NCBI GenBank assembly: GCA_903813345.2
Contig: CAIIXF020000001.1
Span: forward strand, 28,954,001 to 29,018,000
Origin: Owenia fusiformis
Lineage: Eukaryota
Reading direction: 5' to 3'
DNA: 64,000 bases
A program made the translations under genes and the position numbers. Position 1 is the first letter of the stretch. Every line of letters starts with the position of its first letter. The notes beneath the pieces are model-generated. The model searched no databases. It had not been told where the DNA came from and worked only from the letters and a program-made list of their open reading frames with translations. This document shows positions 16,301-64,000 of this stretch, piece by piece.

Positions 16301-19300
16301 CTGTCCATGGCCGTACAGGAGTTGGTCTAATCGAGAATATCAACACCCCTACACCTGGAAACATCAAAATTATGAACACATTAGTTGAAGTTACAAATAA
16401 CAAAGCTGTTGCTAGACTCATCAATATCAGCCAATCTCCAGTCACCCTGTATAGAAGAACAAAACTAGGAAAATTCTCCAAAGTAGATATTCAAGAAGAA
16501 TCTAGTCTTTTCCAAGATGGAAACAATGATGTCATTGTCACAGTAAACAAGATACAACCTGAAAATGAAGTCACAATAGACAAGATATCGGAGCCCAATC
16601 TCATTGATTTTGATGGCACATCTGAAGATAAAGAAAAATTCCAAAATCTTCTACACAAATATGAGGATGTCTTTGCTTCTGATGACTTAGATCTGGGACA
16701 TACAACTACAGTGAAACATGGCATAAAATTATCTGATGACATTCCTGTGAAGCAACCATTCAGACGGATCCCTCCCAACTACATCCAGGAAGTCAAACTA
16801 CAAATAGATCAGATGTTAAGGAAAGGAATAATTCGCCCAAGCAACAGTGCTTATGCCAGTCCCATAGTCTGCGTCCGGAAAAAGTCTGGTGCACTTAGAA
16901 TTTGTGTGGACTACAGAATTATCAACTCTAAAACTCACCGTGATGCATTTCCCCTACCACGTATTGAAGAAAGCATGGATGTCATGAGAGGAGCAAAGTA
17001 CTTCTCTTCACTCGATCTTCAATCAGCGTTCCACCAGATCGAAGTTGAAGAAGCCGACAAAGCTAAAACAGCATTTTCTACACAGTTTGGACTCTATGAA
17101 TACAACAGAATGCCGTTCGGTCTAACCAATAGCCCAGCCAGTTACCAGAGATTAATGCAAACCATATTCCATGAGGAAAACATGAGCAGTCTTATGATAT
17201 TCTTGGATGACATCCTGGTATTCTCAAATGACATTGATGAACATCTTCGTAAACTTGAAAATGTATTTGAGAAACTGAGAAAACATGGATTAAAATTGGA
17301 AATTAGAAAATGTTTCTTTTTTAAGAAGCAAATCAAATATCTAGGGCATGTATTATCTGAAGAAGGAATATCTGTGGATCCTGAAAAAATTAGCGTGATT
17401 GAAAAATGGCCCGAACCAACCACTGTTTCAGATGTTCAGGCGTTCCTTGGATTTTGTGGATTTTATAGAAGATTTGTTATAGACTTTGGCAAAACAGCAA
17501 GCCCGTTGTATGATGTGATAACTGAAAACCTACCATCTGACAAAAGAACAAAGAAGAAGAAAACCAGAGCAAAGTGTAAGATTAAAGTAACACTTAATGG
17601 AAAGTCAAAAGCTGCTTTTGAAGAGATGAAAAAGAAAATGATGAGCACACCTGTACTTGGATACGCAGACTACAACCTTCCTTTTAAAGTTGAGATAGAT
17701 GCATCACTGACAGGATTGGGAGCCATACTAAGCCAAGTCCAGAATGGGAAAGTCAAGATCATTTCATATGCCCATCGTAACCTTCGAAAGGGTGAAAAAA
17801 GTATGCACAAATTCAGTAGCAGAAAACTTGAGCTTTTGGCCATGAAATGGGCAGTCTCTGAAAAGTTTCGCGACTATTTACTGGGGAGCAAGTTTACTAT
17901 ATTTACAGACAACAACCCATTAACACATCTCAAAACCAGCAAGCTGTCTGCAGTGGAACAAAGATGGGTTGGAGAATTAGCTCCATTTAACTTTGACATC
18001 AAATACAATCCAGGCACTACTAACAGAGGTGCAGATATACTTTCAAGACTACAATCTGAAGGAGATGAGACAGAAGCTGAAGACTCAGATTCTGTTGAAG
18101 GTTTAGAATACAAGCCAAACATAGAAGACATCTCTAGTGAAAAGGTTAATCAAGTTATCACTGAAATAACCAAAACTACAAAAGTGACGATACCGGATAA
18201 CGCCATGAACAGCTCTAGTATAGATGTTAATGCTACTGACGTCCAGGATGAAAATATACTCAGTACCCCTCTTTTTGACACAATATCTATCCAGTCAATG
18301 ATAAAGATGCAAGAAAATGATATTGGTATATCATTGCTCAAGAAATCGTTAGTCACTAAGCCTACACTAACTCATCAACTTGATAGCAGATCTAAAACAT
18401 TGCTGAGACAGAAGAAGAGAGTTATTTTAGATCAAGGAGTTTTATACAGAAAGATTATCATCAGAGGAGAACCCTTATGCCAACTGGTCGTACCATCGGA
18501 ACTTGAAAATATCATAATGAAAGGAATGCATGATCATTTAGGACATCAGGCAGCAGAAAGAACTCTAGAACTAATAAAGAGAAAATACTATTGGCCAAAC
18601 ATGAAGAAGTCTGTTGATAGGTATGTAGGTACTTGCAAAAGGTGCACTATTGCCAAACCATTAAATAACAAAAGATGTACTCTTGGAACTATAACAGCAA
18701 AGTCCCCCAATGAAGTTGTGTGCATAGATTTTCTTAAAATTGATCAATCTGATGCTGGTATAGAAGATATTCTTGTCATTACTGATGTATTTTCAAAATT
18801 TTCTATATCTGTTGCATTGAGAAATCAGAAAGCTGAAAATGTGGCGAAATGTCTTATCAACAACTGGACTACAAAATATGGGATCATGAAGCGTTTGCAC
18901 AGTGACCAGGGACCCAATTTTGAGGGTCAAGTTATAGCCAAAATGTGTTCATTATATGGTATATCCAAATCACGCACAACTGCTTATAATCCTATGGGCA
19001 ATGGCCAAGTTGAAAGATATAATAAAACTCTGATTAGTATGATTCAAACTCTTGAACAAGAGAAAAAGTCTAAGTGGCAGTGTTATCTGTCTGAACTAAA
19101 TTTTGCCTATAATGTAACACCACACTCAACAACAGGTTACAGTCCTTTCTACCTTATGTTTGGCAGGGAACCAAACTTACCGACTGACATCATGGATGAG
19201 GAAGAGGACCATAATAAACCTTCTTGGCCTGAACTCCAACACCAAAGACAGACAGAAGCTTACAAGATTGCATCAGACAAAATGAGTAAAAAGGTAGAAA

Positions 19301-22300
19301 ATAGAAAGAAGCCTTACAGAACAATGAAACATTTAAATGTTGGAAACCTTGTTTTATTGAAAAGGCATTATATAGGTCGTTGTAAGATAAAGGATGCATT
19401 TTCCTCTGATCCTTGGATTGTAACAGAAAATTTGGGTGGCAATGTCTACAAAATTTGTCAAGGTACTGAGAAAGTGAAGGTTGTGAATTTAAAAAACTTG
19501 AAGTTATATGCTACATCTAATGACGATACTTCGGATTCTGATGACGTTGACCATGAAGTATCTAGTGGAAATGAATCTACAACTTCTGAAAGTGACAGTG
19601 ATGACTCTAGTTCTGATGGCAGTTTTGAAATTTTACTTTTTTCAAAAAATCAGAGGGAGGAGGAGGACCCATCCGCTCTGCGAAGGTCAACAAGAATAAG
19701 ACAAAAGCCTGATAGGTTAACATATACATAGTATTAATTGTATGAGAAGATATATCAGTAAAATTACTTGCCTTAATTGGTCGGTTATGTTAGTAAAATT
19801 ACTTGCCTTAATTGGTCGGTAGACAGTATAATTACTTATCTTAATTGGTCGGTAATGTAGGAGTTTTTACATTAATATTACTATTATTGTGTTGCCTAAT
19901 ATAACTAATTACAAATATGGATCACTTATACATGTAAGCCCATTTTTGAATTAATGATCTTAAAAATGCACATATAAAGTGTATGATATTATAAACCAAT
20001 TAAAATGCACATAAAAAGTGTATGAATTACATATTACGATAACACAACTTGCTCTTAATGTATTTCAATTTCATAAGTGGCCTAAAACCACAAATATATT
20101 CTGAAGCAATAGTGTTTTGCGCGCCGGTATGTACATAGTTGCACATAGTTAAGGTATTTTTGTATTTTGGGGTGTACATTTTGGGCTAAAAAGCCAGTAA
20201 ATGGCAACACATTTTGTATTAAAATGTAAAATGGCATATTAAGGCATTATTTTGGCATTCATTTATGTAAAAAGCATTACTTTTAATGGCATATGTTTTA
20301 AAGGCATAATTCTCAGAATTCATCATCATTTAACTTTAGAATTGTATAACCATGTACACTTTTGGTCATAAAAACAAAGTAATATTTAACTGTGATGGTC
20401 TGTCAACGTTGTCCGCGTGGATGTGACCAGCTGCACTTTAAAGTTTATAGTTGCATTTATAGATGGCACTATATAGATTTCATGTTTCAATTCACATAAA
20501 TAGCTGGCACATAAATGTGCAACTTCCTCTTGCTTACAGTCACTACAATAGCCACATATATATTTTTACCTCTCCAGAAAATCTACAAAATCATCCACAA
20601 TCGTTCATATTGGTAAGCCATCCACTCTTTATTTTACTTTTATATGCTTTATTAGATATTACTTGATTAAATACAACACATATTTCTGATATTTTACCAA
20701 TCATTTATGGTATTTTTGTCAACTTAGAAATGTATTGTAATTTTTATTCAGGCAGTGTGTTAGGCCACAGATTCACCACCATTGGTTCCCACATTTCCCT
20801 CAAGCTCAAAGCAAGAGCCAGTTCTGTAAGTTAACATGCCAAACATTCAATTAAGTTAGCATTCATGTTGTCAAATGTAAAATAGTCAAATTAGATTGTG
20901 TTTCAAATAAACATGCCAATGCCATTTCGTACTGTAATATTGATAAGCCTTGCCAATGCCATTTCATACTGTAATATTGATAAGCCTTGCCAATGCCATT
21001 CCATGCAATGTTATTATTATATTGTAATTGCTTGTTATGATTTGTTTCTAGCCCCTCTGGCTCTGTAAAGTGAATAAATTGACGTACACCACAAATCTAG
21101 TCGTTCGGTCGTTCACATCTAATTAACAATAACATGGGATAAGTGTTAAATTCAGCAAAATTATGAGTTTTTCTTAAGCTTACCTCCCAATACACAACAA
21201 CTGTTCGGGTGGAATCTGATGGATTTACATCTCTTATTTCAAATCCACCTCCATGGACGCCTGGCCCTCTTGCAGGGACTGAAATAAACACAAGTGAAAA
21301 TAAATGGATGTCTAACTTAGAATTCTGTTGCTTAACAAGACCTGTCTACATGATCTGAGTGGGATGCTAATTGCTGAAGTTAACCAGTTTGCAAGGAAAG
21401 AGTGAAGATTGGTTGAAAGAATAGTACTGTAATCAGTTTGTAAGTCCCTGTTGTTACTAGCCTATTTGAAAGAGTCAATATTCCAGCAAAAACATATTTG
21501 AATATTGATTTTGATTGAACAATTATTAATTATTTAGTTTACATGACATATCAAGACTAGGCCATACAATGGTGACTCACTATCTTGTTTAGTCCTTGCT
21601 TTATCCTGTTTACTGTCACTCCATGCTTCAGGATCAGAGCTATTCCTAGAGGCGACCTTAACAGACACATCAAAAGTGTAGTTTTGATATGGGTGTAGCC
21701 CTTCCACAAGAAACCAAGTCCTGTCTGTCTCACCAGCATTCTGAAAAATCAACTTCTAGTTAACAAAAATGCTCAAAAGCGTGTATTATAAACATAAGTG
21801 CCTACCTAACTGTGCCTAGCCCTGTATCTATGTCAAAAATTAATATCCTTAAATTTCCAATCATATTTTCTAAAAGGAGAAAAGTTTTATATAGATTCCT
21901 TACATGCACTTATAATATTCTGGCAGAAAGTTCAAAGTTAATCGTTTTCTTCGGATTACAATGTTTTTTTAACTTTTCAGCATGAATATAGTGTTGGGAC
22001 CTCAAAACCACGGAATGCCGGAGCGGCACCCTTGGGCAACTCTCTACACAGCATTTCATGGCAACATCGCTTGATAATCAGGTTCTTACATTTCCCTTTC
22101 TTTAATGAGTATAAAGGTCGGGTCCAAAATAACACTTATGTGTTATGCTCTCTAGGTAAAGAAGAGCTCCTTTAGAGGTAAATAGTCACATGGATTTGTA
22201 AAAAATGTGTAACCTGTAGTTGTATAACCCCTCCCCACAGCCCCCAAAGTTTGACGATTGGTGAAAACTGGCAAAAAAACTTTCATTTTCTAGGTTCAAA

Positions 22301-25300
22301 TTAAAAATGCATTGGGATGCAACACTTATTAGTATTCAAGGAACATCCACTGACTTTGTGTGATATAACAATATGAAGATTTTAATTATTAGACAATGGG
22401 AAGTATTTTATTTGAACCATTTTAGAATCCTATCCCATAAAAATGTTGAAAAGAGGGTGTGGTCAATTTTACCATTTTGCAGCATTTAAAGTTTGAAATA
22501 AATACAAACCAAGACATTAAAACATCTTCAAATGTTAAGTATATAGGACACTATATTTTATATGTTAATCTTGTATTTAGTACAAGTCTGAAATCCAATG
22601 CAATCATACAGTGGAGACTAGCAAGGTTTGCATACAATCCAGACATTGGAATCCTTTACAACCCATATAGCAGAATCATTCACAATTCAGAGCCAGGTGT
22701 TTGAAAAGTAGCAAAAATGTTGATTATTGAAAACAACTAAAGATGGCTTTCCATTGGTCAACCAAGCAGCAATATGCATTAAGTCTGACCAGGTTTGCTA
22801 TTGCTCATAGTTACAGGTGTGACGTTGCAGCCAAAATTTGCTTCTTCATTCGTGGTCAGATCGTTAACTTGCCACTAACTCCAGAAACAGTTTGCTCCAC
22901 ACACAAAGATGCCACCTCACACGAGCACACTCACTCACACTAGCTACTTTCCACCATGTGACTCTGATGCTTCATGGTTTAACAAGGATTCTGCTATATA
23001 TTGAGATGATGAGAACCATGATTTTCTTGTTGTGAATGACCCTGCTGAACAGCCTGGCTGTAACTGCCTGTAAGTAGTCTTGAAAATTTGAAGACATCAT
23101 CTTTAGTGATTTACCTTAATCTTTTTAGCTTCTTTTCAAACACCTGGCTCTGATAAATAGCTTAACAAGGACTCTGCTATTTGTTCAGATGATGAGAACT
23201 GAGTGTTTTATATAATACAAATTTTTGCCATACTTTGCACATTGTAAACGACGCTGCTGATTGGAAAGAAAAGGATAAGAAAGGTATGGCCAAAATGACT
23301 GACCCAACATATCAGGATACAATTGTTCATGATAACCACCGACTTCTGCCTAATGAGATGAGATGCTTATGTGTTGACTTTATGCCAATGTCCAGATTAT
23401 GCCAACCTCTCTATTATATGGTTACATTTCATTAAATTTCATTATGATACATGTACTAAATATTAAACTTTCATATAGAAGTGTACTCATTCATGATAAC
23501 CATCATACTGTGATTGCTCAGATGAGAAAAATTAATGGTTTTAATAATTAGACATTATGCCAATGTCGAGACTATGTCAGCCTCTCTGCATAACATTAGA
23601 TTTCATTATGATACATGTACTAAATATAAAACTTATATAAAGAACTGTGCTCATTCATGATAACCATCATAGTCTGATTGCTCAGATGAGAAAAACTAAT
23701 GGTTGTAATAATTAGACATTTTTCCAATGTCTAGACTATGCCAGCCTCTCTACTGTATGATACCATTATTAGATTTCATTTTGATACATGTAGTAAATAT
23801 AAAACTTACATATAGAACTGTACTCATTCATGATAACCATCATAGTCTTTGCTCAGATGAGAAAAACTAATATTGATTGTGATAATTAGACATAATGCCA
23901 ATATCTAGAATATGCCAACCTCTCTACTGTGCTGTGATGCTTATGTGTTGACTTTATGCCAATGTCCAGATTATGCCACACATAGATGTACTAAATATTA
24001 AACTTACATAAAGAACTGAACTCATTCATGATAACCATCATAGTCTGATTGCTCAGATGGTCTTAGTTTTATAACAGGGTCTTAGTTTTATAACGTGGGG
24101 GGTCTTAGTTTTATAACAGGGTCTTAGTTTTATAACGTGGGGGGTCTTAGTTTTATAACAGGGTCTTAGTTTTATAACGTGGGGGGTCTTAGTTTTATAA
24201 CAGGGTCTTAGTTTTATAACGTGGGGGGTCTTAGTTTTATAACAGGGTCTTAGTTTTATAACGTGGGGGGTCTTAGTTTTATAACAGGGTCTTAGTTTTA
24301 TAACGTGGGGGGTCTTAGTTTTATAACAGGGTCTTAGTTTTATAACGTGGGGGGTCTTAGTTTTATAACAGGGTCTTAGTTTTATAACGTGGGGGGTCTT
24401 AGTTTTATAACAGGGTCTTAGTTTTATAACGTGGGGGGTCTTAGTTTTATAACAGGGTCTTAGTTTTATAACGTGGGGGTTCTTAGTTTTATAACAGGGT
24501 CTTAGTTTTATAACGTGGGGGGTCTTAGTTTTATAACAGGGTCTTAGTTTTATAACGTGGGGGGTCTTAGTTTTATAACAGGGTCTTAGTTTTATAACGT
24601 GGGGGGTCTTAGTTTTATAACAGGGTCTTAGTTTTATAACGTGGGGGGTCTTAGTTTTATAACAGGGTCTTAGTTTTATAACGTGGGGGGTCTTAGTTTT
24701 ATAACAGGGTCTTAGTTTTATAACGTGGGGGGTCTTAGTTTTATAACAGGGTCTTGGTTTTATAACGTGGGGGGTCTTAGTTTTGTAGGTCTTAGGTCTT
24801 AGGTCTTTGTTTTGTAGACACCCGGAAGTATTCTAAGTATGATGTTCGATCTGTATGACAAAAATTTAAGAAAATATTTTTATCCGTTGCTATAGCAACA
24901 GTAATAGAACACTATTTGTTACCTTGGAAATGCACTAAATACAAAATTTACATATAAAATTTAGTGTCCTATATACACGTGATACATGAATCAATGTCAA
25001 GTAACATTTGAATATGTTTTAATGCCTTAGTTTGTATTTATTTCAAACTTTTAATGCTGCAAAATGGTAAAATTGACCACACCCTCTTTTCAGCATTTTC
25101 ATGGGATAGGATTCTAAAATGTTTCAAATAAAATACTTCCCACTGTCTAACAATTAAGATCTTCACATTGTTATATCAGACAAAGTCAGAAGATGTTCCT
25201 TGAATACTAATAAGTGTTGCATCCCAATGCATTTTTAATTTGAACCTAGAAAATGAACGTTTTTTTCCAGTTTTCACCAATCATCAAACTTTGGGGGCTG

Positions 25301-28300
25301 TGGGGAGGGGTTCTACAACTACAAGTTATACATTTTTTACAAATTCATGTGACTATTAACCTCTAAAGGAGCTCTTCTTTACCTAGAGAGCATAACACAT
25401 AAGTGTTATTTTGGACCCTACCTTTATACTCATTAAAGAAAGTGAAATGTAAGAACCTGATTATCAAGCGATGTTGCCATAGCAACTGAAATATTAGACA
25501 TATTACATAAATGATATGATGAATTATTTTATCTTCACTTCTAATCATGCTATATGCTTCAGAGAGTGTAAGAACCAAGAATATGAAGAAAATGATGAAA
25601 ACACACAAAATAATACATTTCTAAGGTAACAAATAGTGTTCTATAACTGTTGCTATAGCAACGGATTAATATTTTTTCTTGATTTTCACCATACATATTA
25701 AGCATCATAATAAAAATACTTCCTGAAAATTTCAAGTCTATATCTTTATTAGTGTTTGAGATATAAAGGTGTCTTATAGTACCCCCTGTAGATTTTATTA
25801 GGGGGTATAAGAAATGCTCTGTAGAGAGTTGCCCAAGTGTGCCGCTCCGGCATTCAGTGGTTTTGAGGTCCCAACCCTATATTCATGCTGAATAGTTCAA
25901 AAAACATTGTAATACGAAGAAAACGATTGATCCTCAAAATACCCCATATTTCTTCCAGACTATAATGAATTCAAATGACAACAGAAACTGTATGATCTTA
26001 GAAAGGTATGAAATAAGTCCCCTGATTGACAACTACTTGTGTTTCAGCTTCAGTTTTGTCTTTATTAAAAAGTTCATGTGAATGCAAGTCACTTTATAAA
26101 TCACAACCTTTGAAAGTGTTATGCTTTTTTGAATTTTTGAATGATATAATATCCTAAGTACACCGAATAAAAGAAAAATAAATTTGTTTTTTTCACCTCC
26201 CACCCTACCTTTTTTAGGGTGTTAACAAACATGATTTACTTTGAATGGCCTTACCTGCCATTGAGGCTGGTCATCTCTCTTATATAGAACTCTGTACATG
26301 ATTGGATTGATTGGTTTATCTCCATTTGGCTCCCAAGTAACATTGATTGCAACACTGCTCTCAACAATGAGCTTCACCTTATTTACAGCATAAGGGACCA
26401 CTGGAATAAGATAATATATTGGCTTTTTAGATAAATGTATGAAGAAAAGCACCAACCATCTCAAATTTTGAATTGCTTTACTTGGTAAAAAGTGTTTTAG
26501 GTTTTCATATATACACCCTATGCAGACAGAGCCTGTGGGAAATATTGGGTGCGGAGCAAATGAGCGGAGGGTGCGGAGCTAACGGTCATTTTTGAATTTA
26601 AATTTGGGATATTTCTGAAACTAAGCCGTTTTGGGACTTCAAATATACCAAGATATGTGTATTTGACACCAAATATCAATACAATTGTGAAAATAGTAGC
26701 GCAATTCATTCTATAGCGACGCAGTGTGCCTTAAACCTTTCCCAGACCTATATCTTTTGAAATTATCCTTTTAATACTGAGTCCCCAGCATTCATAAAAA
26801 ATGGTGTTCAAGGAACACTATCTATACAAATTATTTTTGCATCTTGGAAGCCAGGCAGTATCTGTGTGATTTCATAAAAATTCGGAAATGTTTTTCAGAT
26901 ATGAGCCCCTTCTAAATATTGGGTGCGGAGCAGCTCCATAAACGTACCTCCCCACCCAATATTTAGAGGGGGCTCATATCTCAAGAACATTTCCGAATTT
27001 TTATAAAATCACACAGATACTGCCTGGCTTCCAAGATGCAAAACTAATTTGCATGGGTAGTGTATCTTGAACACCATTTTTTATGAATGCCGGGGACGCA
27101 GTATTAAAAGGATAGTCTCAAAATATATAGGTCTGGGAAATGTTTAAGGCATACTGCGTCGCTATAAAATGAATTGCACTACTATTTTCACAATTTTATT
27201 GATATTTGGTGTCAAATACACATATCTTGGTATATTTGAAGTCCCAAAACGGCTTAGTTTCAGAAATATCCCAATTTAAAATTCAAAAATGACCGTTAGC
27301 TCCGCACCCTCCGCTCATTTGCGCCGCACCCAATATTTCCCACAGGCTCTGTCTGCATAGGGTGATATACAAATAATTGACTTAGAATTGGCCTTAACGT
27401 TGATTGCAACACTGCTCTCAACAATGAACTTCACCTTATTTACAGCTTAGGGAACCACTGGAAGATAATACATTGGTTCTCTAGATATCTAAATATACAG
27501 GGTGTCAAATAAGTCCCGTCCCCCCTGCTACAGCTTGCACCTTAACAGACAGTACCTAGTGTGATATACCATTGGAAAGATCATCCAAAGTTATGTTAAC
27601 TCACCAACTCTCAAGTATTTTGGATGAAATTTACTTATATTTTAATGATGTCTTTTATAGTTAACGTGCCCTCCTTTATGTAGCTTTTTTGCGTCAAAAT
27701 GACAAGGATATGACCTCAGAAATACGTCAAAAAGTTAATCTTTTTCGCATTCCACTTGTTACAAAAAGGTTTTCACCACTTTCCTTGCACCTCTATTAAT
27801 ACACATCTAACCCTATCCAGAAATTGGTTAAATTCATCGCCATAAACATATTTAGTCATCTTTTGGTCCCTTGACCTTTCTTATACCAGATTCTTAAAAT
27901 CCTGCCAAATACGCCAAATTGCCATATTTCTAGGCATATGGTCACCTCAATTAATACAATGTAAAAATTTGTGAGATTGATTGACATGTGTCAGATATAT
28001 GCCAATCAACGTAACTTTGGAAGACCTTTCCAATGATATATCACACTTGGTACCAAATATCTTGGTTTTGGCTGTAGAGGGGGGGACGGGACTTATTTGA
28101 CACCCTGTATAAAGAATTACTTAAAGGCAGAATCTGATCTATAGGGGGTGACAAAATTACAAGCAACATATAATTGACCTACCAATCTATTCCTTACAAT
28201 ATCAAATACAATATCTCCCAAAATATTTACGATCTGTTATAAATTGGTGAAGTTATTAATGATTCAAAGTGCAAAAATGAGTGAAAAATGTTTAAATTCT

Positions 28301-31300
28301 CTCAAATAATAAGAATGGTTACCATTCTTATAGAAAAAAATAGTACATTATTGTAAAAATCTTTAGTTTTCCTGGAATAAAGTATGCACTTTTGTGATTT
28401 TTAGAAAATAGACATGACAAGGAATGACATGAGCCAAAAATATTCTAAAATTGAAACAATTTTTTGTTTAGCCTGCTCGCTATATCTGATTCTTTCTTTA
28501 ATTACTTTAACTTCATCTCAATTGTGCAACAGTTCAAGTGTAAATGTAAATCATAGAGCGGGTAGGTGGTTAAATACTGTTTAAGGGTGTTCCTTGGGTG
28601 TTTGTGTAGGGTGCTATGTCCACCATAAGGCACCAGCATATAAATCTGAACCAAATCCATTGACTGGTAGATTAGATCAGAGATTACCAAAAAATGGCAG
28701 CCATTTTGAATTCAGTTGCCATCTTGGAAAATTCTTTTTGAGTGGAGTCCTTTGTCCCTAAGGCATCAGTATTTTAATTTTGATCCAAATATACTGACTG
28801 GTATTTGAGTTATCAAAAATTTTGATAATATCTAACTTTTATTGACAAACAATATAATTATTTCAACTAATTAATTATACAATATTCTACATTTTTTAAC
28901 ATGCAGTAATGCAATAATTGTATTATCAGGAGCTGTGCAATTGACATGATATGTACATATGTACATGCAGAAAGATGTACTTAAGAGCAGAAAACAAACA
29001 CACTTTTGTTTGACAACAATTGATTAAGTACTGACAATGGTATTACATAACTATTTACACAAATTTTCTTTGCAAAATATTGGAAATAATTTAAAATAGT
29101 CACATGCTGCTATTTGTATAGAAATAATTAGTCATCATTTCACCAAACAAAAGTACCATCTTTAAATCAAAAATGCTTTTCAAATTAACTTCCAGAAACA
29201 TTGGGATAGTCACTATACAAGCAAAAACATGGATTTAATAAAGGAATCATAAAAAGCTCAATAAGCAAATATGGCCATGTGATCCACTAAATAAATGCAT
29301 TGGGAGAATAATGGGTGGGGTTCCAGAAAATTTAATTCAGAAAAACAACAAGACACAGGGTGAACTGCACCCTTTGAACCTGTAGAAAAGCCTCAACAGG
29401 CAAGATTTAAGGATTGAAAATCTAAAATGGCCGCCTTAACATTTAACAAGAATGCCCAAAAACTAATCAGTTCTAAACGTTCACATGTCATGCATGTAGA
29501 AATATCTCTAAAATTTCAGATGAATCCATGAAACAGTTTGAAACCTGTAGAAAAGCTTCAACACACAAGATTTTAGGATGAAAAATTCAAAATGCTGACC
29601 TTAACATTTACTCAGAATGCCCAAAAACTAATCAGTTTTTAAGTTTATACATACTGTACATACATGCTTATAAGTAGTTGGATGTGTAGAAAACATAGTA
29701 TCCTCTTATGTACTAAAAGACAATACTTGTGATGATGATGTCACAAACAAGATATATCTGTTTCATTTCAAGAATGCATAGAGTGCAATAAGGGATTAGT
29801 AAAATTAATAATGTTAAAGCGGCTAAAAATAACCTAGACACCAAGTCTATTATCAGTTAGTAATATGTATATTTCATCCAAGACAAGAATGGTAGGGGAA
29901 GTCACAAAGTTGCTCCTTCTTGGCACTTTGGATTTCCAAGGTACGGATTTCCAGGGTATGAAGTTGTCAAAGTTTTTTTGATTGAAAATCTAACTGGTAA
30001 AACATTTGGCTGATTTAAGTATCTCAGTCTAAGACCCACAAGTCTGTGAAAGCAGAACAGCCGACACAAAAGGCTTAAAGAAAAAATCATCTTGGGTGTC
30101 TAGATGATCTAAAAGGCAATAAATCTTACTCATTGTAGCAAGGCTTTCTATATGAATGCAGGTGGATTAATGCATACTACTCTATATAAACAAGCATTTA
30201 AGCACCAGTCACCAACCAGCATGTAGAAGTTAACACTCACTATTTGCTTCCATGTCTATTCTCTCTCTTGCAGTGGTTTTACCAATATCATTGATACAAT
30301 CAATTTGTAAATAAAGGTAAAGCCTGGCAGAAATATGAGTAAAGTTACAATGATTTGAAGAACAGATGCAATTGGATTTATGCTCCTTGTCTTCAGATGT
30401 ACATGGTGTCAATCCTCCAGAGCTTGGGTGCCTGCAAAAACACAAAAGTTAAGATGACAACACAAATAATAGATTTAATAATAAATACTCACTGTGATCT
30501 TTCATAACTATCTGATGATGATGTTGGGGAAGTTCTCCAAGCGCATTCTTTATTGTCATAAACAAATACAATATTTGCTGACTAGCTACAATCCTTGAGA
30601 AATAGCAATAATTCTCAGTACAGCTGCACATGGATTCAGTTCCACCACATTGATGCAGTTTACCGCGAAATCTGTAAAAAGATCTGCATCTGCATACAAA
30701 AATGAATCCCTTTTCAAATTTAAATCTAAATCTTTCAAAAGCGAATAGAATCAATGATTCCCAGTCCTCTGAAGTTTGAAAGTATGTACCTGGGTGCTAA
30801 TCCATAGATAATCCTTGAAAATGAGAAATATTTTTGGGGATTATATAAAGCAATCTTATACATGTAGTCAATAAAATGTTTTAAAGAGTATTGACGTTTT
30901 TGGATGAATGACGTAAGCAAAATGGTTGAAAAACCTTGACACCCCCCCAAAAAAAATTGAAAAATTTTTTTTTTGAAAATTTCTTATTGAAAATTTTTTT
31001 TGTTATATTTTTTTTCATAGACTTACACACTTTGAAGGTGCCTAGAAAGCAACAAATAGGATCTTTTGTTTATTCAGCAGTAATATTAAAATTATAAAAT
31101 TGTAAAATTTTCTTGGGGGAGTGGGCCACCCCTCACACACCCACAAAACAATTGAAAAATCTGAATTATTGTATTATTGTCTCAGACACTTTTAAAGGGC
31201 CCAGACATCATCAAAGGCACCTTGATACAGTAAATGTTTCTGGGGAACAAACACTTGCGCTCCCTCTGACACCCCCACCCCACCTCCCCCGCTGGAATTC

Positions 31301-34300
31301 CCCTTTGACACCCCCCCAAAAAAACTGTCTTGTGGGCATGATGCTGTATACAAAACTACAAGAAACAAAGTTGATGTGCCTTCCTACTTGTCTTCGGTGT
31401 ACACTGTTTCCAGACACAGGGTACTTTGGCATGCAGAGCTGTACAAGAGCATAGCTGTGTGTCACTAAATGAATGTTACTTACAGAGAGCTATACACAGA
31501 CCTGAAGATTATTGCACAAAATGCACTTACAAAAAGCTGTATGAAACAGTGGTTGCTGTATGCAGGAAGGTAGCATTCTTCTGTTCAGGTTCCCAAGAGA
31601 CATGTCCATCATTCCAGTTATTAAACCGAGCACGAAAATTTGTTGGTTTCACTGGTTTCCCTGGAAAAGATAAGGCAATAACATAATATGGTGACTTTCA
31701 TAGAGTTATATGCATATATATGTAAAATATCACTTTTACAAAGAATCTGTTGTGGGGCAATGAAATAACTATACAGTGCCTGTATATTCTATCAGATGCT
31801 TATAGATTAAAAGATGTCATAAGAACAAAAATGCTCAAATTGAATGATCACAAAAAGAAACTGAAACCATCAATGGTACTAGTTCCTGGATGAAGTTGGA
31901 TAAATGTGACATCTTTTTAACCAATTGTATTGCTACCATTGTATAAGGTTACTATAAAAGAGGTCTCTTCAGATGCCTTTGTCGTAAGTGTTCTGGGAAG
32001 CACACCATCAGATTGCAAGACAAATTTTAATTGAACAAAGTCTGAAAATTAGCGACATTTCATTCATTTACTTCTTTTATATTTCTAATCAGAATTTTGA
32101 TCAAAAAAATAAAAGTTGACTCAAGTAACTTGAGTGTGTGAGTCACAAAATAATTCGGTTTATTACTAGCACTATATATTTGATTACAACCACACAATAT
32201 TGTAAATTACAAGAAACATTCAATCATTCACAGAAATAATGTCTCACCAGGTTTAACGGTAATTATCACTAGGTTCAATTCACTTGAGAAGTTTTATATA
32301 TATTTTAAAATGCAAATAATATACTGCCCTTTACAGCTTTACTACTTTACACAATGAGAGATTTCTTCATGTTCTTCTGAGAACAACAAGTATAATTTGA
32401 AATACAGATAAAACACTTTTAAACTACACGTTTAAACTACACGTACAATGTATATTAAAGTGAATAAGATAAAAATCATTTAATTCTGAAGTACTGGTAT
32501 ATCAAGATTGCATGTGGTAATATTAGAACAGCCCTTCACCATAGGTTGATTATTAGGTATTTGATAAGTATGAACTATTATGAAGGAATGACACAGGACA
32601 CAAGATAATTCCTCAAGGTTGTTCAGAATACTATCATGTCATAGCCAGCTTTTGCCTCAGGAGTTTGATTTTTGACAAAAGTCCAGGCAGTTTGACAATG
32701 TTGGCCCAAAATCACTTAAAATATGCTCAAAATGGTTAAGACTGCTCAAATATGTTTGCCAATGAAAAATATATTTGAACGAGAGGACCATGTCAGTCTG
32801 TTAAAGGAAATTACATTATATCTTATCATTTATTTGAGTCCACAAGTACAAGTATTTCCTTGAATACATGTCAATAAAAAGGTTTCTGCTGAACACTCTA
32901 ATCAGGTTTAATATTTAATCCAACCTTTTGCAGTTTAAAATTCTCATTATTCCAATATATAGCAAAATGTCCAAAATGTCCCCACCAATGGGTGATCCCG
33001 TCTAATGGTTATCCTAAAAATGAGTAGACAAGACTTAATTTAAGGATGGAAAATCCAAAATGGCCACCTTAAAATTTACCCAGAATGCCATGAAAATTTG
33101 AAATTGATCCGTCACACAGTTAACCAGAAAACATGTAAACAAGACTTTACAGACAAGATTTTAGGATGGAAAATCCAAAATGGCTGCGTTGACATTTACC
33201 CAAAATGTCAAAAAACTAATCAGTTTGTAGATTTTCATACTAAAATTTTACTCGAGTCTCTAGCTTACAGCTAGACGAAACTTCATTGATTTCGTATGTA
33301 CTGTGCTACACGCACCTACACGCACCTAGAACTCATTTTTAATAAATTTTATAAATATTTTTAAGAATATTAATCATATTTAGGATGAAGCGTTGCTTGT
33401 CTGGATTTAGATATTTCAAAATTTCATTTCGGAGTTTGACACATGGTGAAATTTTCTCGCTGTAGCTAAAAATGGCTTCCGGTTCTGGACGTGAATAACA
33501 TTTGAAATTATTCTCGCTTAAAGAAATCAAATATAACAATAGATTCAGACGGGGATGTGAGCTGATGTTCTTCAAATCTATACATAAAGGTATATTTCAT
33601 ATTATTATGCCATATTTACTGTGCGTGTGACACAATGATTTACAATATTTATAATACTAAGGCAGCTCAATCTTCCTCCTCAAAGCCGGAATATAGAGAA
33701 GGCTTTGGACCGAAGTAACTAAAATTCATCCCTGAAAATATGAAATTGATCTTCCGAACAGTTCACCTTAAAACGCATAGACAAGACTTTACAGACAAGA
33801 TTTTAGGACAGAAGATCCAAAATTGCTGCCTCGACATTTATGCAAAATGCCAAAAAACTAATCAGATGTAGATTTTCATACTAAGAATCATCCCTGAAAA
33901 TTTGAAATTGATCTACCAAACGGTTCACCTTAAAACGCGTAGACAAGACTTTACAGGCAAGATTTTAAGACGGAAAATCAAAAATGGCTGCCTTGACATT
34001 TATCCAGAATGCCAAAAAACTAATCAGATCTAGATTTTCATACTAAGAATCATCCCTGAAAATTTGAAATTGATCTACAGAACGGTTCACCTGGAAATGC
34101 GTAGACAAGTCTTTACAGACAAGATTTTAGGACAGAAAATCCAAAAATGGCTGCCTTGACATTTACCCAGAATACCAAAAAACTAATCAGATCTAGATTT
34201 TTATACTAAGAATCATCCCTAAAAATTTGAAATTGATCCACCAAACGGTTCACCTGAAAACGCGCAGACAAGACTTCACAGACAAGATTTTAGGACGGAA

Positions 34301-36415
34301 AAATCCAAAATGGCCGACAATAAAAAAGTGATTATGAGTTTTTGCTGATTTCCCTTTACAAAATTATCACATATAACTACTGTTAACAATAACATAGGCT
34401 TTTACAAGAAAGTACATCTGAAATTATTTATAAAGCTACTAAATAGTTAAAGTATGAAAACTCAAAAACACCATTCAGTATGATACAAAGTATTATCGCA
34501 CGCTAACTTTTCTTAAGACATTCAAAATGGCTGCCATGACTGAGCTAACAGGTTCAAAACCTAATCAGATCTAGAATGAAGTGAGCTGAACAAGATATTA
34601 AAGTTTTAAAAGCAACTGTGAAGCTGTTTTTCTTAAAGTTTGCAGACAAGGATTTTAGCATTTGACTTCAAAATGGCCGACAGGAAGTAGGTTTCGAGTT
34701 AATTTTTTTCATCCACACCTGTATGCACTCATAAGTTATCCCTGAAAATTTGAAGGTGATATCTGTAGCGGTTTTGGAGAAAACTCCCGAACGTACGGAC
34801 GGACGGACGTACTCCCGCAGAGTCCTTTGTGCAATTTTTTCCTTGTGCTGTGCGGGTTGCACATTCTAGTACAGTCCACAGTGCCAAATCTGTCCAAGTT
34901 ATAATGGACAATGTTAAGCATATCAAAATTGATACGGGGTGCGATTGTTCTTTATGAATGTGAGGTGCACTGGTTATGAAAACTGACCAACTTCTGGGTT
35001 GCACCACAGAGGTCGGTAAAAACCCCAGAAGGGTATATCTGAACGCATGGCGCACAGCACTAAGGACTCTGTGGGAGAGCAGACGGACGGACGGACGGAT
35101 GGACGTGCCTAGGCCGACAATATGACCCCACACTATGTGGTGGGGACATAAAAAGCTAAACATGAAGTTGAAGACTAAAGTGACTGTTTAGCGCTTGACA
35201 CAAAGTTCAAACGCAGGTATCAATACTCTAGCAATCAAAACATTATGCTTTTCTTAAGCTTCACAAATGAATGTGAAAGCAAAAATAAATGAATTTGTTA
35301 TAACAGTTGAATCACTCAGAAGTTCTGATATGTGAACTGTATACATAAGGTCTGATTGATTCTCCATTAATTCACGGTATAGTCTGTCACGTGACTTAAA
35401 TTTAATCTTTATTGGGTCACCCTGCAAAAACCAATGAATCTACAGTCTTCAAACTTTCCAACTAAAGTTAAAATAAAACATGCAAGAATATTAACAAACA
35501 ACCTATAACATTACATTGTAGAGGTTTCACAAAAATTGTAGAAGATGGAGTAAAAATTGTTGTCATACTTCCTATTGTAGCCACCTGTGATCCAATCAGT
35601 GTTCGTTTCACATTTTCCTCACTGGTGCTTTCGTTCAGGTAACAATAAAATGGGTGCCTCCCAGTGTATTGTCCTGTCATATTCTCTTTGTATATCATTA
35701 AAGTTGGAGACAGGATTGTGTAGAAATCCGATGAGATTACTTTAGAGCCAGCTTGGAAATAGAGGTAGCTTGAGTTGAAGGGGGCAACATCCCCTGTCAA
35801 TGTACAGTTTAGTTCAATATAATTTCCAAGCTCAACTAGAGGATTCACTGGTGTTACTTCTGGAAAGACAAGAATGAACAATTTGTTAAGAGTGTAATCC
35901 TTCAAAATCAAAATATTAAACTATAGTTATAAAAAGTGAGCAAAACACAAAGTGAACAAGATCACCCCATCAAATAAGCATTTTAAGCAATGCCCAGAAA
36001 AATGGCACTAGATTCTCAACATTTTTTATTTGACAGCCATTTAAAAAAAATGTTTGCGTCCAACCATTTGCCAGTATACATCTTTGCACAAAATATGAAG
36101 AAAATCAGTACACTTATACTTGTAAATGTGTTTGTATGACAGACAGGGACAGATGAATGAACATTAATGAAATCAAGGAATGAAAAAGTTAGATACAAGT
36201 AGTATATAAACTGATCTAAGGACAGATGGGCAATCACCAATAGAGACAACAGACAAGGGAGAGATAGCAATGAACCATTTAGCAAAAAAAACATAAGAAT
36301 GTGCACTTTGAAGAATTCAATACTTACTTCCAGGACTTGATATAAAGAATCCTTGCAATAAAACTTGGGATATGACTAAGAATACCACATATATCTGAGT
36401 CCAATGTAAGGCCAT
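826..36415 (-). CDS. Class I cytokine receptor, gp130/IL6ST-Domeless-like, copy 1 (spliced gene model, ~920-924 aa)
   Basis: Hand-assembled join (minus): 36328-36415, 35569-35859, 31531-31660, [30493-30671 OR 30241-30431], 26255-26400, 21581-21740, 21184-21278, 11203-11443, 9008-9144, 8316-8469, 7906-8061, 7462-7614, 4996-5083, 4344-4455, 2136-2264, 826-1329. All junctions GT-AG with matching phases; total 2763 or 2775 nt. Order: signal peptide, Ig, CBM (NALG motif, degenerate WSXWS 'EAWSDSK'), FN3 x3, TM, box1-like, Ser-rich tail. Family assignment is from architecture, not a database search. Confidence 0.85.
1645..1999. mobile_element. MITE, Mutator-like TSD
   Basis: Imperfect TIRs AGAGG..CCCCAGAG / CTCTGGGG..CCTCT; CTGTTTAGTA duplicated at 1635-1644 and 2000-2009; absent from the equivalent paralog intron. 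Confidence 0.75.
2136..2264 (-). CDS. Receptor copy 1: cytoplasmic exon
   Basis: HFGGSGRQPQDGYTAIDNPESPTNSGTPFIQENSGQSNDLVLP; ttgtag / gtatgt; homologous exon in paralog. Confidence 0.8.
2371..3967. mobile_element. Non-autonomous TIR element with 15-bp subterminal repeats
   Basis: GGTCATCTCAACCC ... GGGGTTGAGATGACC; ATAAAA on both flanks; empty site in paralog (~61667). Confidence 0.7.
2760..3140 (+). pseudogene. LINE (CR1/L2-like) RT C-terminal remnant
   Basis: LIFKSFFLPLFDYCDIIY resembles the post-RT motif of CR1/L2-clade ORF2; disrupted by a local duplication. Confidence 0.6.
4344..4455 (-). CDS. Receptor copy 1: juxtamembrane exon with box1-like ITLP
   Basis: RGRQGIDWCKKSATQEITLPDDHDNFMVENGINDNTI; ttttag / gtaagt; homologous exon in paralog. 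Confidence 0.8.
4606..4702. repeat. 32-bp tandem repeat x3
   Basis: CTTGTTACACTGATGTATCACCAGATCACACA. Confidence 0.85.
4996..5083 (-). CDS. Receptor copy 1: transmembrane exon
   Basis: GLRPWHWGLIAIGILIALILAGIGLRAFVK; ttttgtag / AA|gtaagt; same 88-nt length in paralog. Confidence 0.88.
5150..6045 (+). mobile_element. Helentron/HINE-like non-autonomous element
   Basis: ~140-bp core tandem repeats with AAAATGGCGGCCATTTT, then (GGAC/GTAC)n microsatellite 5877-5975 and 3' hairpin; boundaries approximate. Confidence 0.6.
7462..7614 (-). CDS. Receptor copy 1: membrane-proximal FN3 exon
   Basis: VKEHNVTGANKLRETIPGVPEGKYCVEMSSYSEGG...SRFI; ttttcag acceptor conserved in paralog; G|gtaata. Confidence 0.82.
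7906..8061 (-). CDS. Receptor copy 1: FN3 exon
   Basis: SRVEAPKGVVAINDSDVSESLTVSWEPYLC...GWTIFYYPENDISN; attcag / G|gtgagt. Confidence 0.85.
8316..8469 (-). CDS. Receptor copy 1: FN3 exon
   Basis: IPIVSQVLKNG...LYGVSVFNGKIHSGINWADCLYDYSI; tttcag / gtaagt. Confidence 0.82.
8600..8800. repeat. Dispersed repeat (copies at ~40240-40430 and inverted at ~58250-58450)
   Basis: Shared GAGTAGGTAGTTAC..CCAGGTGGCT and downstream sequence. Confidence 0.75.
9008..9144 (-). CDS. Receptor copy 1: FN3 exon
   Basis: VFPVKQLVAFSNVNNITVTFNIG...VYCPRVAFNDKVCNEK; tttccag / AAG|gtgagt. Confidence 0.8.
9404..9969. mobile_element. MITE with TTAA TSD (Kolobok-like)
   Basis: TTAA|AGGGT ... ACCCT|TTAA, imperfect TIRs. 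Confidence 0.55.
10335..11089. mobile_element. MITE, PIF/Harbinger-like
   Basis: TIR AGGGAG(T/G)TTAAGATTAGCGTAAA; 3-bp AAT on both flanks. Confidence 0.8.
11203..11443 (-). CDS. Receptor copy 1: FN3 exon
   Basis: DIPQEDKNGILIDCRV...YRLVVECRTEVGYS...EVPRTEK; NG-x-I and VGYS motifs typical of gp130-family FN3; phases 0 to 1. Confidence 0.85.
11748..12443 (+). repeat. 5' LTR
   Basis: Direct repeat of 20422-21117 (offset 8674); TG...CA ends; AATAAA at ~12399; internal 38-bp tandem duplication ~12240-12326. Confidence 0.97.
12446..12460 (+). other. Primer-binding site
   Basis: TGGTACTGCGGGC begins 2 nt after the 5' LTR; TGG is complementary to tRNA CCA; cognate tRNA not identified. Confidence 0.7.
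12529..12760 (+). repeat. Tandem array, ~28-bp unit (14-bp subunits), in retrotransposon leader
   Basis: AACCGAGATTCCAGGTTCGAGATTCGAT repeats. Confidence 0.9.
12955..13385 (+). repeat. Tandem array, ~52-65-bp units, in retrotransposon leader
   Basis: Recurrent CATGAACTCTGATATTCA core with two alternating tails. Confidence 0.9.
13876..14595 (+). repeat. Tandem array, ~8 units of 91-102 bp, in retrotransposon leader
   Basis: Units start TACAGGGTG-like at 13876, 13968, 14060, 14151, 14252, 14354, 14454, 14547. Confidence 0.9.
14660..15736 (+). CDS. gag: Gag with C-terminal CCHC zinc knuckle
   Basis: First ATG 14660; RKQKPNESVMQY retrotransposon capsid-like motif; CTHCGRWGHAIERC (C-X2-C-X4-H-X4-C). 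Confidence 0.93.
   Translation: MATPTSEDKYKEAYMRLQKEKKQQDEEILRLDHIRKEAELKAKQLEKSRKEMETQLKDISKPYKMVIPERKKLDFFKGKTDFQEWKEDAINYLRYKDEEEHIDLLMYHLKGEAKLAVKNDQLETIDEIFDALELTFDQKEAPGVLKSKFYTRKQKPNESVMQYILSLTKLMDKWQKATEIPLTATEQNNILKEQFIENLSVPQLKWELHKYLRDHPDASFRDMKIFASQYTKDVPCNDASTNDPDIEVSAIATSLRDIESKMSNMIEQNFKEIKKLTDGMQNYVETIKDDIKTEVTADLNTKLQSLTQELKQEIRQETNRSRTKCTHCGRWGHAIERCFYNKNKDTTQSTYTQQQPKN
15727..15770 (+). promoter_or_regulatory. -1 programmed ribosomal frameshift signal
   Basis: A AAA AAC heptamer directly before the gag TAG, 6-nt spacer, stem TGCCCCCCACT/AGTGG(A)GGGGCA; -1 frame runs into pol. Confidence 0.85.
15739..19731 (+). CDS. pol: Pol polyprotein (aspartic protease, RT, RNase H, integrase), expressed by -1 frameshift
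   Basis: LVDTGS protease; CVDYR, MPFGL, FLDD RT; DAS/ELLA/TDN RNase H; HHCC and D,D(35)E (CIDF, SDQG, QVER) integrase; uninterrupted 1330 codons. Confidence 0.97.
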   Translation: MPPTNKKVEGQSSIESNKMHHKSDNETTFSENLIGNEALIHTSINNNDTISMLVDTGSRVSLIYESYYNQHLKGQSNIENCFINLVAANHTPIPYIGFIVVDIEVAGTKIKDANIIVQKDPENKNNKSTARVGILGTNILKHLKMFKHILCTDDTQKPDEDFNLKPQAARVYETTVIPANCEADVVLTVHGRTGVGLIENINTPTPGNIKIMNTLVEVTNNKAVARLINISQSPVTLYRRTKLGKFSKVDIQEESSLFQDGNNDVIVTVNKIQPENEVTIDKISEPNLIDFDGTSEDKEKFQNLLHKYEDVFASDDLDLGHTTTVKHGIKLSDDIPVKQPFRRIPPNYIQEVKLQIDQMLRKGIIRPSNSAYASPIVCVRKKSGALRICVDYRIINSKTHRDAFPLPRIEESMDVMRGAKYFSSLDLQSAFHQIEVEEADKAKTAFSTQFGLYEYNRMPFGLTNSPASYQRLMQTIFHEENMSSLMIFLDDILVFSNDIDEHLRKLENVFEKLRKHGLKLEIRKCFFFKKQIKYLGHVLSEEGISVDPEKISVIEKWPEPTTVSDVQAFLGFCGFYRRFVIDFGKTASPLYDVITENLPSDKRTKKKKTRAKCKIKVTLNGKSKAAFEEMKKKMMSTPVLGYADYNLPFKVEIDASLTGLGAILSQVQNGKVKIISYAHRNLRKGEKSMHKFSSRKLELLAMKWAVSEKFRDYLLGSKFTIFTDNNPLTHLKTSKLSAVEQRWVGELAPFNFDIKYNPGTTNRGADILSRLQSEGDETEAEDSDSVEGLEYKPNIEDISSEKVNQVITEITKTTKVTIPDNAMNSSSIDVNATDVQDENILSTPLFDTISIQSMIKMQENDIGISLLKKSLVTKPTLTHQLDSRSKTLLRQKKRVILDQGVLYRKIIIRGEPLCQLVVPSELENIIMKGMHDHLGHQAAERTLELIKRKYYWPNMKKSVDRYVGTCKRCTIAKPLNNKRCTLGTITAKSPNEVVCIDFLKIDQSDAGIEDILVITDVFSKFSISVALRNQKAENVAKCLINNWTTKYGIMKRLHSDQGPNFEGQVIAKMCSLYGISKSRTTAYNPMGNGQVERYNKTLISMIQTLEQEKKSKWQCYLSELNFAYNVTPHSTTGYSPFYLMFGREPNLPTDIMDEEEDHNKPSWPELQHQRQTEAYKIASDKMSKKVENRKKPYRTMKHLNVGNLVLLKRHYIGRCKIKDAFSSDPWIVTENLGGNVYKICQGTEKVKVVNLKNLKLYATSNDDTSDSDDVDHEVSSGNESTTSESDSDDSSSDGSFEILLFSKNQREEEDPSALRRSTRIRQKPDRLTYT
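20422..21117 (+). repeat. 3' LTR
   Basis: No differences from the 5' LTR seen by eye. Confidence 0.97.
21184..21278 (-). CDS. Receptor copy 1: FN3 exon
   Basis: IPARGPGVHGGGFEIRDVNPSDSTRTVVVYWE; tttcag / GAG|gtaagc. Confidence 0.85.
21581..21740 (-). CDS. Receptor copy 1: D3 FN3 C-terminal half with degenerate WSXWS
   Basis: NAGETDRTWFLVEGLHPYQNYTFDVSV...PEAWSDSKQDKARTKQD; FN3 LxPxxxYxF motif; tttttcag / gtgagt. Confidence 0.88.
23380..24058. repeat. ~165-bp tandem repeat x4
   Basis: Recurrent CATGATAACCATCATAGTCTGATTGCTCAGATGAG. Confidence 0.8.
24059..24823. repeat. 42-bp minisatellite (~17 copies; 19+23 subunits) ending in a transposon-like terminus
   Basis: (GGGTCTTAGTTTTATAACAGGGTCTTAGTTTTATAACGTGGG)n then ...GTTTTGTAGACACCCG. 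Confidence 0.95.
26255..26400 (-). CDS. Receptor copy 1: D3 FN3 N-terminal half
   Basis: MVPYAVNKVKLIVESSVAINVTWEP...MYRVLYKRDDQPQWQ; ttccag / CAG|gtaagg. Confidence 0.85.
26514..27364. mobile_element. Foldback MITE with CAC termini
   Basis: ~410-bp near-perfect inverted arms starting CACCCTATGCAGACAGAGCC; ATATA on both flanks. Confidence 0.9.
27385..27492 (-). pseudogene. Partial degenerate duplicate of the D3 exon 5' end
   Basis: Matches 26338-26435; contains in-frame TAA. Confidence 0.8.
27498..28107. mobile_element. Tc1/mariner-type MITE
   Basis: TA|CAGGGTGTCAAATAAGTCCCGTCCCCCC ... perfect inverted copy|TA. Confidence 0.9.
30241..30431 (-). CDS. Receptor copy 1: D2 C-terminal half, alternative exon B
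   Basis: HPSSGGLTPCTSEDKEHKSNCICSSNHCNFTHISARLYLYLQIDCINDIGKTTARERIDMEAN; tttttgcag acceptor, A|gtgagt donor; phase 2 to 1; Cys pattern matches exon A. Confidence 0.78.
30493..30671 (-). CDS. Receptor copy 1: D2 C-terminal half, alternative exon A
   Basis: FRGKLHQCGGTESMCSCTENYCYFSRIVASQQILYLFMTIKNALGELPQHHHQIVMKDH; tttttacag acceptor (two in-frame alternatives just upstream), A|gtgagt donor; phase 2 to 1. Confidence 0.8.
31531..31660 (-). CDS. Receptor copy 1: cytokine-binding module D2, N-terminal half
   Basis: RKPVKPTNFRARFNNWNDGHVSWEPEQKNATFLHTATTVSYSF; ttttccag acceptor, TT|gtaagt donor (phase 1 to 2). Confidence 0.8.
33000..35155 (+). mobile_element. Helentron/HINE-like element with ~162-bp core repeats
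   Basis: Tandem AGACAAGACTTTACAGACAAGATTTTAGGA units, (GGAC)n at ~34792 and ~35082, terminal hairpin CCCCAC..GTGGGG; related fragments at ~7130-7320 and ~29400-29640. Confidence 0.65.
33248..33718. mobile_element. MITE with TTACT...AGTAA ends and 8-bp TSD
   Basis: CTAAAATT duplicated at 33240-33247 and 33719-33726. Confidence 0.8.
35569..35859 (-). CDS. Receptor copy 1: Ig-like domain exon
   Basis: KVTPVNPLVELGNYIELNCTL...PFYCYL...QVATIG; tttccag acceptor, gtatga donor, phase 1-1. Confidence 0.85.
36328..36415 (-). CDS. Receptor copy 1: first coding exon, signal peptide (exon begins in UTR at 36439)
   Basis: MALHWTQIYVVFLVISQVLLQGFFISSPG; acceptor tttcag, donor A|gtaagt phase 1. Confidence 0.8.
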
Positions 36416-63947: not shown

Positions 63948-64000
63948 CTGAAAAAGGAAATGTGCTAGGTATTACTTGTAAGCTTCCTCTAGGAATCGCT

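Follow-up and report, generated by a model that had tools for sequence, protein, structure and literature searches.

The DNA analysed here is a stretch of 64,000 nucleotides (nt) from Owenia fusiformis (contig CAIIXF020000001.1, positions 28,954,001–29,018,000; hereafter the window), whose minus strand carries a gene for a putative gp130-type cytokine receptor. This report is concerned with two neighbouring, homologous exons of that gene, A and B, which are alternatives for the second half of one extracellular domain. Window positions are used as given, and the gene and both exons were read on the minus strand by inspecting the reverse complement of 30800–30100. The domain in question, D2, is the first of the two domains of the cytokine-binding module and comprises ~105 residues. 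Its first ~43 residues are encoded by the constitutive exon D2a (31531–31660), which ends two bases into a codon, and the remaining ~60 by A or B; the exchanged part should therefore consist of the C-terminal strands and loops of D2. Exon A (30671–30493) has 179 nt with 59 full codons, exon B (30431–30241) has 191 nt with 63 full codons, and an intron of only 61 nt (30492–30432) separates them. The constitutive exon D3a (26255–26400) opens with the two bases that complete a codon and starts the second domain of the module, D3.

A pyrimidine tract ending in CAG precedes each of the two exons and GTGAGT follows each. Both exons are phase 2 to 1 and free of stops in the frame fixed by the neighbouring exons; at the base composition of the window, the chance of an open frame is ~0.012 for A and ~0.009 for B. 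In the MAFFT alignment the products share 19 invariant columns (35% identity), and ~65% of the aligned residues differ. The common columns include C..C.C..N.C.F..I..LYL..N..G..I.M, i.e. four cysteines together with the LYL and N-x-x-G core. BLASTP aligns the pair with E = 1e-05. The local BLOSUM62 score is 57, compared with a mean of 23.5 for shuffled sequences (standard deviation 4.5, maximum 49), and none of 5000 shuffles reached that value. A third copy of the exon was not found anywhere in the window by tblastn. The product of A has an isoelectric point of 7.9, four cysteines and no N-glycosylation sequon. B, the diverged copy, has an isoelectric point of 6.0, a fifth cysteine and the sequon NFT.

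An earlier note on this DNA had described A and B as adjacent, stop-free, homologous and highly diverged exons with a shared motif, strong acceptors, gtgagt donors and the same phases. The alignment statistics and the splice sites read on the minus strand bear out this description. The frame shift that the note expected from the use of both exons or of neither is found as well: double inclusion leads to a stop 20 nt into B and double skipping to a stop 19 nt into D3a. Retention of the 61-nt intron gives a stop at intron nt 41. The products computed from the window with one exon each, D1-D2a-A-D3a-D3b and D1-D2a-B-D3a-D3b, are both open through D1-D2-D3 (D1 and D3b are flanking exons described below). 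The pair thus shows the features by which clusters of mutually exclusive exons were recognised in a human survey, namely neighbouring similar internal exons of matching phase and similar length without in-frame stops (PMC5740500). The sequence observation, adjacent, open, homologous exons of equal phase whose frame is kept only by A alone or B alone, is confirmed.

A profile of A and B was compared with 1.84 billion representative proteins and gave two matches, P0001 and P0002, both from Owenia. P0001 (GenBank CAH1774162.1, "unnamed protein product, partial [Owenia fusiformis]") has 122 residues, all 122 of which lie inside the translation of the B isoform; it is not contained in that of the A isoform. 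This public model begins near the end of D1, continues through D2a and exon B and breaks off early in D3a; exon A and the rest of the receptor are missing from it. The public annotation is corrected accordingly, as the deposited model is a 122-residue fragment with exon B. P0002 (CAH1774169.1, 468 residues) is encoded on the same 62.2-Mb contig and is a paralog of the window gene. It is identical to the window gene at 77/96 residues in D1, 24/42 in D2a, 20/41 in A, 17/45 in B, 21/41 in D3a and 34/53 in D3b. Among proteins of near length, P0001 matched only itself and P0002 only itself among 2227 candidates, and exon A gave no match when compared with longer proteins.

The corresponding segment of P0002 is of the A type, with a score of 115 to A and 88 to B, and A and B score 57 with each other. 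This comparison covers three sequences and is compatible with either order of the exon duplication and the gene duplication. The A-like paralog speaks for a first alternative, in which A is the exon that works and B arose recently by duplication, has no function of its own and is included through splicing noise or as a by-product of certain stages. The odd fifth cysteine of B would fit this alternative as well. B nevertheless retains the four shared cysteines and the conserved core, its frame is open over 63 codons despite the low chance of such a frame, B-only mRNA is in frame, and the Atlas model of the B-form D2, a confident one, shows a predicted cytokine-receptor fold (see below). The alternative is taken up again with the RNA data, where exon usage can be compared.

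RNA data over 26200–31800 comprise two contig sets from two studies (X1 and X2) and two raw RNA-seq runs of the same species label (X19 and X21). Statements on junctions refer to the joints listed, which are 15 of 41. X1 and X2 have a depth of 0 in the unique intron bins 29192–29378 and 29753–30126, and their joints are GT..AG on the minus strand; both sets thus behave as spliced RNA. The joint between D2a and B (30430/31530), which skips A, is GT..AG on the minus strand with a depth of 93.2 in X1 (two contigs) and 5.24 in X2. The joint between B and D3a (26400/30241) is of the same kind, with depths of 121.6 and 5.24, respectively. In X2, a single contig of 245 nt runs from D2a through B into D3a, with 26 and 29 letters of the two neighbours. 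For exon A, an X2 contig of 257 nt aligns exactly to 30493–30671 and carries 29 and 49 extra, non-intronic letters at its ends, which places the cuts on either side of A at the predicted splice sites. In X1, a contig with a depth of 161.9 extends over 30501–30671. The alternative use of both exons that the earlier note had proposed is therefore supported by RNA, as the joints of B skip A and the contigs of A end exactly at 30671 and 30493.

The contig depths of A and B are 162 and 130 in X1 and 6.3 and 5.2 in X2, so that B accounts for ~44–46% of A+B. D2a has a depth of 321 in an X1 bin and of 16.4 in the X2 contig 31550–31660. For X1, the depths of A (162) and the body of B (129.5) add up to ~292, which is near the value of D2a. 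The raw runs have a different composition. In X21 the depth is 2.33 for A, 1.8 for D3a and ~0.1 for B, and in X19 it is 0.42 for A and 0 for B. First mates of the raw reads lie on the plus strand, as expected for minus-strand RNA in usual stranded libraries. The use of A and B may differ between samples, with a ratio of ~1:1 in the contigs of X1 and X2 and A only in the raw runs, where reads are few. These data indicate that transcripts with B and without A and transcripts with A and without B both exist, the latter from about three reads of one raw run. Coverage of A at a near-zero depth of B in both raw runs is what would be expected if B had no function of its own. On the other hand, the share of B in the contig depth of X1 and X2 and its two canonical junctions in two runs of two studies speak against splicing noise, and a functionless B is considered unlikely.

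Position 30559 in exon A is variable. The X1 contig and all raw reads (2/2 in X19 and 3/3 in X21) have G, the window and the X2 contig have T (plus strand). Read by eye from the codons, G changes residue 38 encoded by exon A from Met to Leu; Leu is also found in exon B, and the paralog carries Ile. The difference is probably a polymorphism.

Two X1 contigs (30391–30494 and 30402–30494, with depths of 22.2 and 19.8) keep the 61-nt intron unspliced together with the ends of A and B, and a further intron piece (31332–31548) has a depth of 6.8. Such contigs would be expected if exclusivity were not strict and A+B or A-intron-B were made regularly as unproductive, decay-targeted forms that tune the receptor level, and every such form indeed hits an early stop. 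The intron-carrying contigs reach, however, only ~6–13% of the exon depth, and incompletely spliced precursors of both isoforms would give the same kind of contig. There is no joint from A to B among the joints listed. Furthermore, the depth of the B body in X1 (129.5) is already matched by the D2a-B joint (93.2) and the intron-carrying contigs (19.8 and 22.2), which leaves little room for direct splicing of A to B. Regular production of these forms is judged very unlikely.

Transcripts with A and transcripts with B might also stem from two near-identical gene copies or two haplotypes instead of one gene. The gene does sit in a tandem cluster of paralogs, and the contigs differ from the window at 1–8 sites per exon. 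Yet both exons lie 61 nt apart in one locus, contigs that join the end of A, the intron and the start of B exist, and the known paralog is 38–80% identical per exon at the protein level, far below the mapping threshold of 95%. An origin from two copies or haplotypes is thus highly improbable.

The family of the receptor was derived from predicted structures. A structure search of the ESM Atlas with residues 45–375 of P0002 returned class I cytokine receptors in ten of ten rows, with template modelling (TM) scores by query of 0.59–0.79. The matches include gp130, CRLF1, OSMR, G-CSFR, IL-31RA and IL-12Rb2, with scores of 0.66–0.79 to the gp130, CRLF1, OSMR and G-CSFR clusters, and the feature search agrees. 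The Atlas model of P0001, which represents the B-form D2, has a predicted TM score of 0.68. Nine of its ten structure rows are cytokine-receptor clusters (TM score 0.65–0.74), which carry IL6Ra-bind, EpoR_lig-bind or LIFR_D4. Both sides of these comparisons are predicted models, and the results for P0001 and P0002 count as one source. At the fold level of the predicted Atlas models, an immunoglobulin (Ig)-like D1 precedes a two-domain cytokine-binding module. More exons of the fibronectin type III (FnIII) kind, membrane-proximal FnIII domains and a single transmembrane segment, a hydrophobic stretch of 19 residues conserved in the paralog, complete the likeness to gp130 and Domeless.

In canonical class I receptors, D2 has four conserved cysteines in two-pair spacing, D3 has the motif WSXWS, and the cytoplasmic tail has the JAK-binding motif Box1 and the STAT-docking motif YxxQ. 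The Owenia gene differs from this pattern. D2a has no cysteine, and all four cysteines of D2 are located in its second half, the A/B exon, with the spacing C-x6-C-x-C-x4-C in A. WSDS occupies the position of WSXWS, with WSES in the paralog.

Several results argue against the family assignment. Inspection of the tail exons by eye revealed neither Box1 nor YxxQ; no formal motif search was made for them. Pfam gave no significant cytokine-receptor match, as Lep_receptor_Ig (E 0.018) and fn3 (E 0.004–0.085) all fell under the cut-offs. A sequence search of solved structures returned generic fn3 chains only (DCC and PTPRD, E at least 0.05), and the A+B profile gave irrelevant matches only when compared with solved structures. 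An AlphaFold2 single-sequence model of P0002 was discarded as useless (mean predicted local distance difference test score 32.8). The label gp130/Domeless-like of the earlier note therefore stands at the level of predicted structure (TM score 0.59–0.79), without a significant match in sequence, and the gene is accepted as a gp130-type class I cytokine receptor at the fold level only.

Taken together, a tandem exon duplication in a single-pass gp130-type class I cytokine receptor gene, of which each mature mRNA keeps exactly one copy, is the favoured explanation and is regarded as quite probable. The duplicated exon would encode the C-terminal ~60 residues of D2, and the two isoforms would be identical except for this segment. 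Exclusivity would be secured in two layers. The first layer would be the length of the intron between A and B. Its 61 nt contain a single match to YTRAY, the branch-point-like TTAAC, which puts the predicted branch A 44 nt into the intron and 17 nt before the acceptor. The spacing of 61 nt and the putative branch point ~44 nt from the upstream donor agree with the earlier note. With its only branch-point-like site at this distance from the donor, the intron is probably too short to be spliced alone and would be removed only together with the larger intron to which it belongs in each isoform. The X1 contigs with the unspliced intron fit an intron that leaves only inside a larger one. We infer steric enforcement by the 61-nt intron from its sequence. 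In the second layer, double inclusion, double skipping or intron retention leads to a stop within 7–14 codons, as the sequence shows directly, and nonsense-mediated decay would then clear such transcripts.

Competing RNA structures were considered separately. An inverted-repeat scan of 29900–31700 gave 15 short imperfect pairs of 11–25 nt without comparative support, which were rejected as evidence.

A number of points weigh against exclusive use of two functional exons and its proposed enforcement. X1 and X2 carry only the label "RNA?", none of the indexed runs listed for this sequence is on record as RNA, and by the mapping tool's own caution contig depth reflects expression poorly. The support by raw reads is small, with three reads (X21) and two reads (X19) at 30559. 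The junctions named in the earlier note were recovered in part: 31531 to 30431 and 30241 to 26400 were found in X1 and X2, but the joints that would connect A with its partners (31531 to 30671 and 30493 to 26400) and A with B (30493 to 30431) are not among the joints listed. The partners of A and the absence of A+B are thus deduced from boundaries and depths. The matches to the A+B profile are limited to the two Owenia proteins, so that the comparison of B stays within one species. Finally, the steric layer is weakened by its branch point being a predicted one, and introns of ~60 nt are spliced in many invertebrates.

The position of the exchanged segment suggests a role in ligand binding. In human gp130, the cytokine site comprises the D2 EF loop and the D3 BC loop, and lesions in the region of the C'-C'E-E module and of the EF loop lead to ligand-independent, domain-swapped dimers, according to a preprint (bioRxiv 10.1101/2025.11.11.685192). 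By analogy, the A/B segment should hold the D2 contact loop, as it corresponds to the half of D2 with the EF loop and the C'-C'E-E module. Most likely the isoforms would therefore differ in ligand recognition, as in FGFR IIIb/IIIc, or in activation threshold. The switch would diversify exactly the half-domain that holds the cytokine-contact EF loop in gp130. If the isoforms bind different ligands, the number of receptor specificities would be raised by compact means.

In its logic, the arrangement comes closest to the IIIb/IIIc switch of FGFR1-3. These are also single-pass signalling receptors, and one beta-sandwich domain of their ligand-binding region takes its C-terminal half from either of two neighbouring homologous exons, one of which is used per mRNA. 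The domain concerned is Ig domain III of a tyrosine kinase receptor, whereas the Owenia gene exchanges part of an FnIII-like D2 and has no kinase. Exclusivity in FGFR2 is achieved by tissue-specific regulators and intronic elements and is not known to depend on a tiny intron; the Owenia exons, in contrast, are only 61 nt apart. The exon choice of FGFR2 sets the repertoire of FGFs that are bound (PMC3192734), and FGFR1-3 are named among the receptors with mutually exclusive exons (PMC5740500).

The spacing of the Owenia exons resembles that of pairs controlled by steric hindrance. Exons 2 and 3 of alpha-tropomyosin are such a mutually exclusive pair. The distance from donor to branch point in the Owenia gene, predicted as 44 nt, lies under the criterion of <50 bp for branch-point proximity. 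As far as the accessible part of the human survey goes, 57 clusters (9%) fall under this criterion, and 60% of the mutually exclusive clusters have frame-incompatible exon lengths, i.e. not divisible by three, as is the case for A (179 nt) and B (191 nt) (PMC5740500). The pair may be a natural and simple test case for the enforcement of mutual exclusion by intron length.

The "Dscam-style" diversification suggested by the earlier note is overstated for a cluster of two exons, to which the FGFR IIIb/IIIc switch is closer. Dscam1 does share tandem homologous exons for half of an extracellular beta-sandwich domain, one of which is kept per mRNA. The Owenia gene has two such exons and not dozens, no docking and selector complementarity stood out in the scan (short imperfect pairs of 11–25 nt), and nothing in the gene suggests a stochastic choice per cell.

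The kind of arrangement, a mutually exclusive pair derived from tandem exon duplication, is well known; within the searches made, its occurrence in this gene family is new. In the titles and beginnings of abstracts of the papers listed, such exons are not described for any cytokine receptor, and no paper combines mutually exclusive exons with Domeless; supplementary lists, such as the human list of PMC5740500, lie outside this search and might include a cytokine receptor. The papers listed for Owenia and alternative splicing deal with other subjects, as judged by titles and beginnings of abstracts. Receptors of the invertebrate JAK/STAT pathway are few and poorly understood. In the accessible part of a recent survey of the pathway, IL6R-like receptors are traced back only to molluscs and Owenia is cited only for its JAK (PMC13203501). 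Owenia is an early-branching annelid, and the window gene is part of a tandem cluster of gp130-like receptor genes that have diverged strongly. A more far-reaching interpretation is that an FGFR-like switch in a gp130-type receptor provides two receptors that differ in ligand specificity or in ligand-independent dimerisation, with regulation by stage or tissue and with an intron whose shortness rules out splicing on its own and so fixes the switch. In that case no comparable switch would have been described before in class I cytokine receptors, and Spiralia would seem to possess a diversified cytokine-receptor system that has gone unrecognised. We hold this interpretation only tentatively and consider it less probable than its opposite.

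The other exons of the gene are located on both sides of the pair on the minus strand. The exon of the N-terminal Ig-like domain D1 (35569–35859, phase 1 to 1) was assigned by its splice sites and is the source of the Lep_receptor_Ig match below the cut-off. D3b (21581–21740) encodes the degenerate motif WSDS at the WSXWS position and has a Pfam fn3 match under the cut-off (E 0.085). More FnIII-like exons follow beyond D3b, with a weak fn3 match (E 0.0074) at 7898–8110. The block of the transmembrane exon (4909–5180) encodes the hydrophobic 19-residue stretch WGLIAIGILIALILAGIGL and is 79% identical to the paralog block 62953–63216. A serine-rich tail exon (1329–826) was identified by its open frame and splice sites.

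The 3' part of another paralog is present at 60091–64000. It lies on the same strand and is colinear with 495–7667 in five blocks of 70–93% identity, which include the transmembrane and tail exons; it stops short of D2. Together with CAH1774169.1 on the same chromosome, this paralog points to a local cluster of gp130-like genes.

Several repeats are found within the gene. The intron after D3b contains a long terminal repeat (LTR) retrotransposon of 9.4 kb (11747–21118), antisense to the receptor gene. Its LTRs (11747–12444 and 20421–21118) have 698 bp each and are 100% identical, and its open frames encode a gag-like protein of 377 residues (PNMA match) and a pol protein of 1348 residues (reverse transcriptase, RNase H and integrase). 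The insertion appears to be very recent. The intron between D3a and D3b harbours a minisatellite (24059–24784) with a unit of 42 bp in 17.3 copies (99% matches); a long open frame across it was rejected as a repeat artefact.

A copy of the D3a acceptor and the first 63 nt of this exon, 89% identical and with an in-frame stop, is located at 27395–27470, 1 kb upstream of the real D3a. No use of this pseudo-acceptor is visible among the joints listed. Beside it, at 26514–27364, lies an inverted repeat with arms of 417 nt that are 94% complementary. The region has a very high depth in four of four runs, which indicates that the inverted repeat belongs to an expressed repeat family. A unit of 162 bp is repeated 3.7 times at 33718–34314 and has relatives at 29335–29635 and 33031–33223, dispersed in two introns of the gene. 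This repeat is probably a short interspersed element or resembles a miniature inverted-repeat transposable element.

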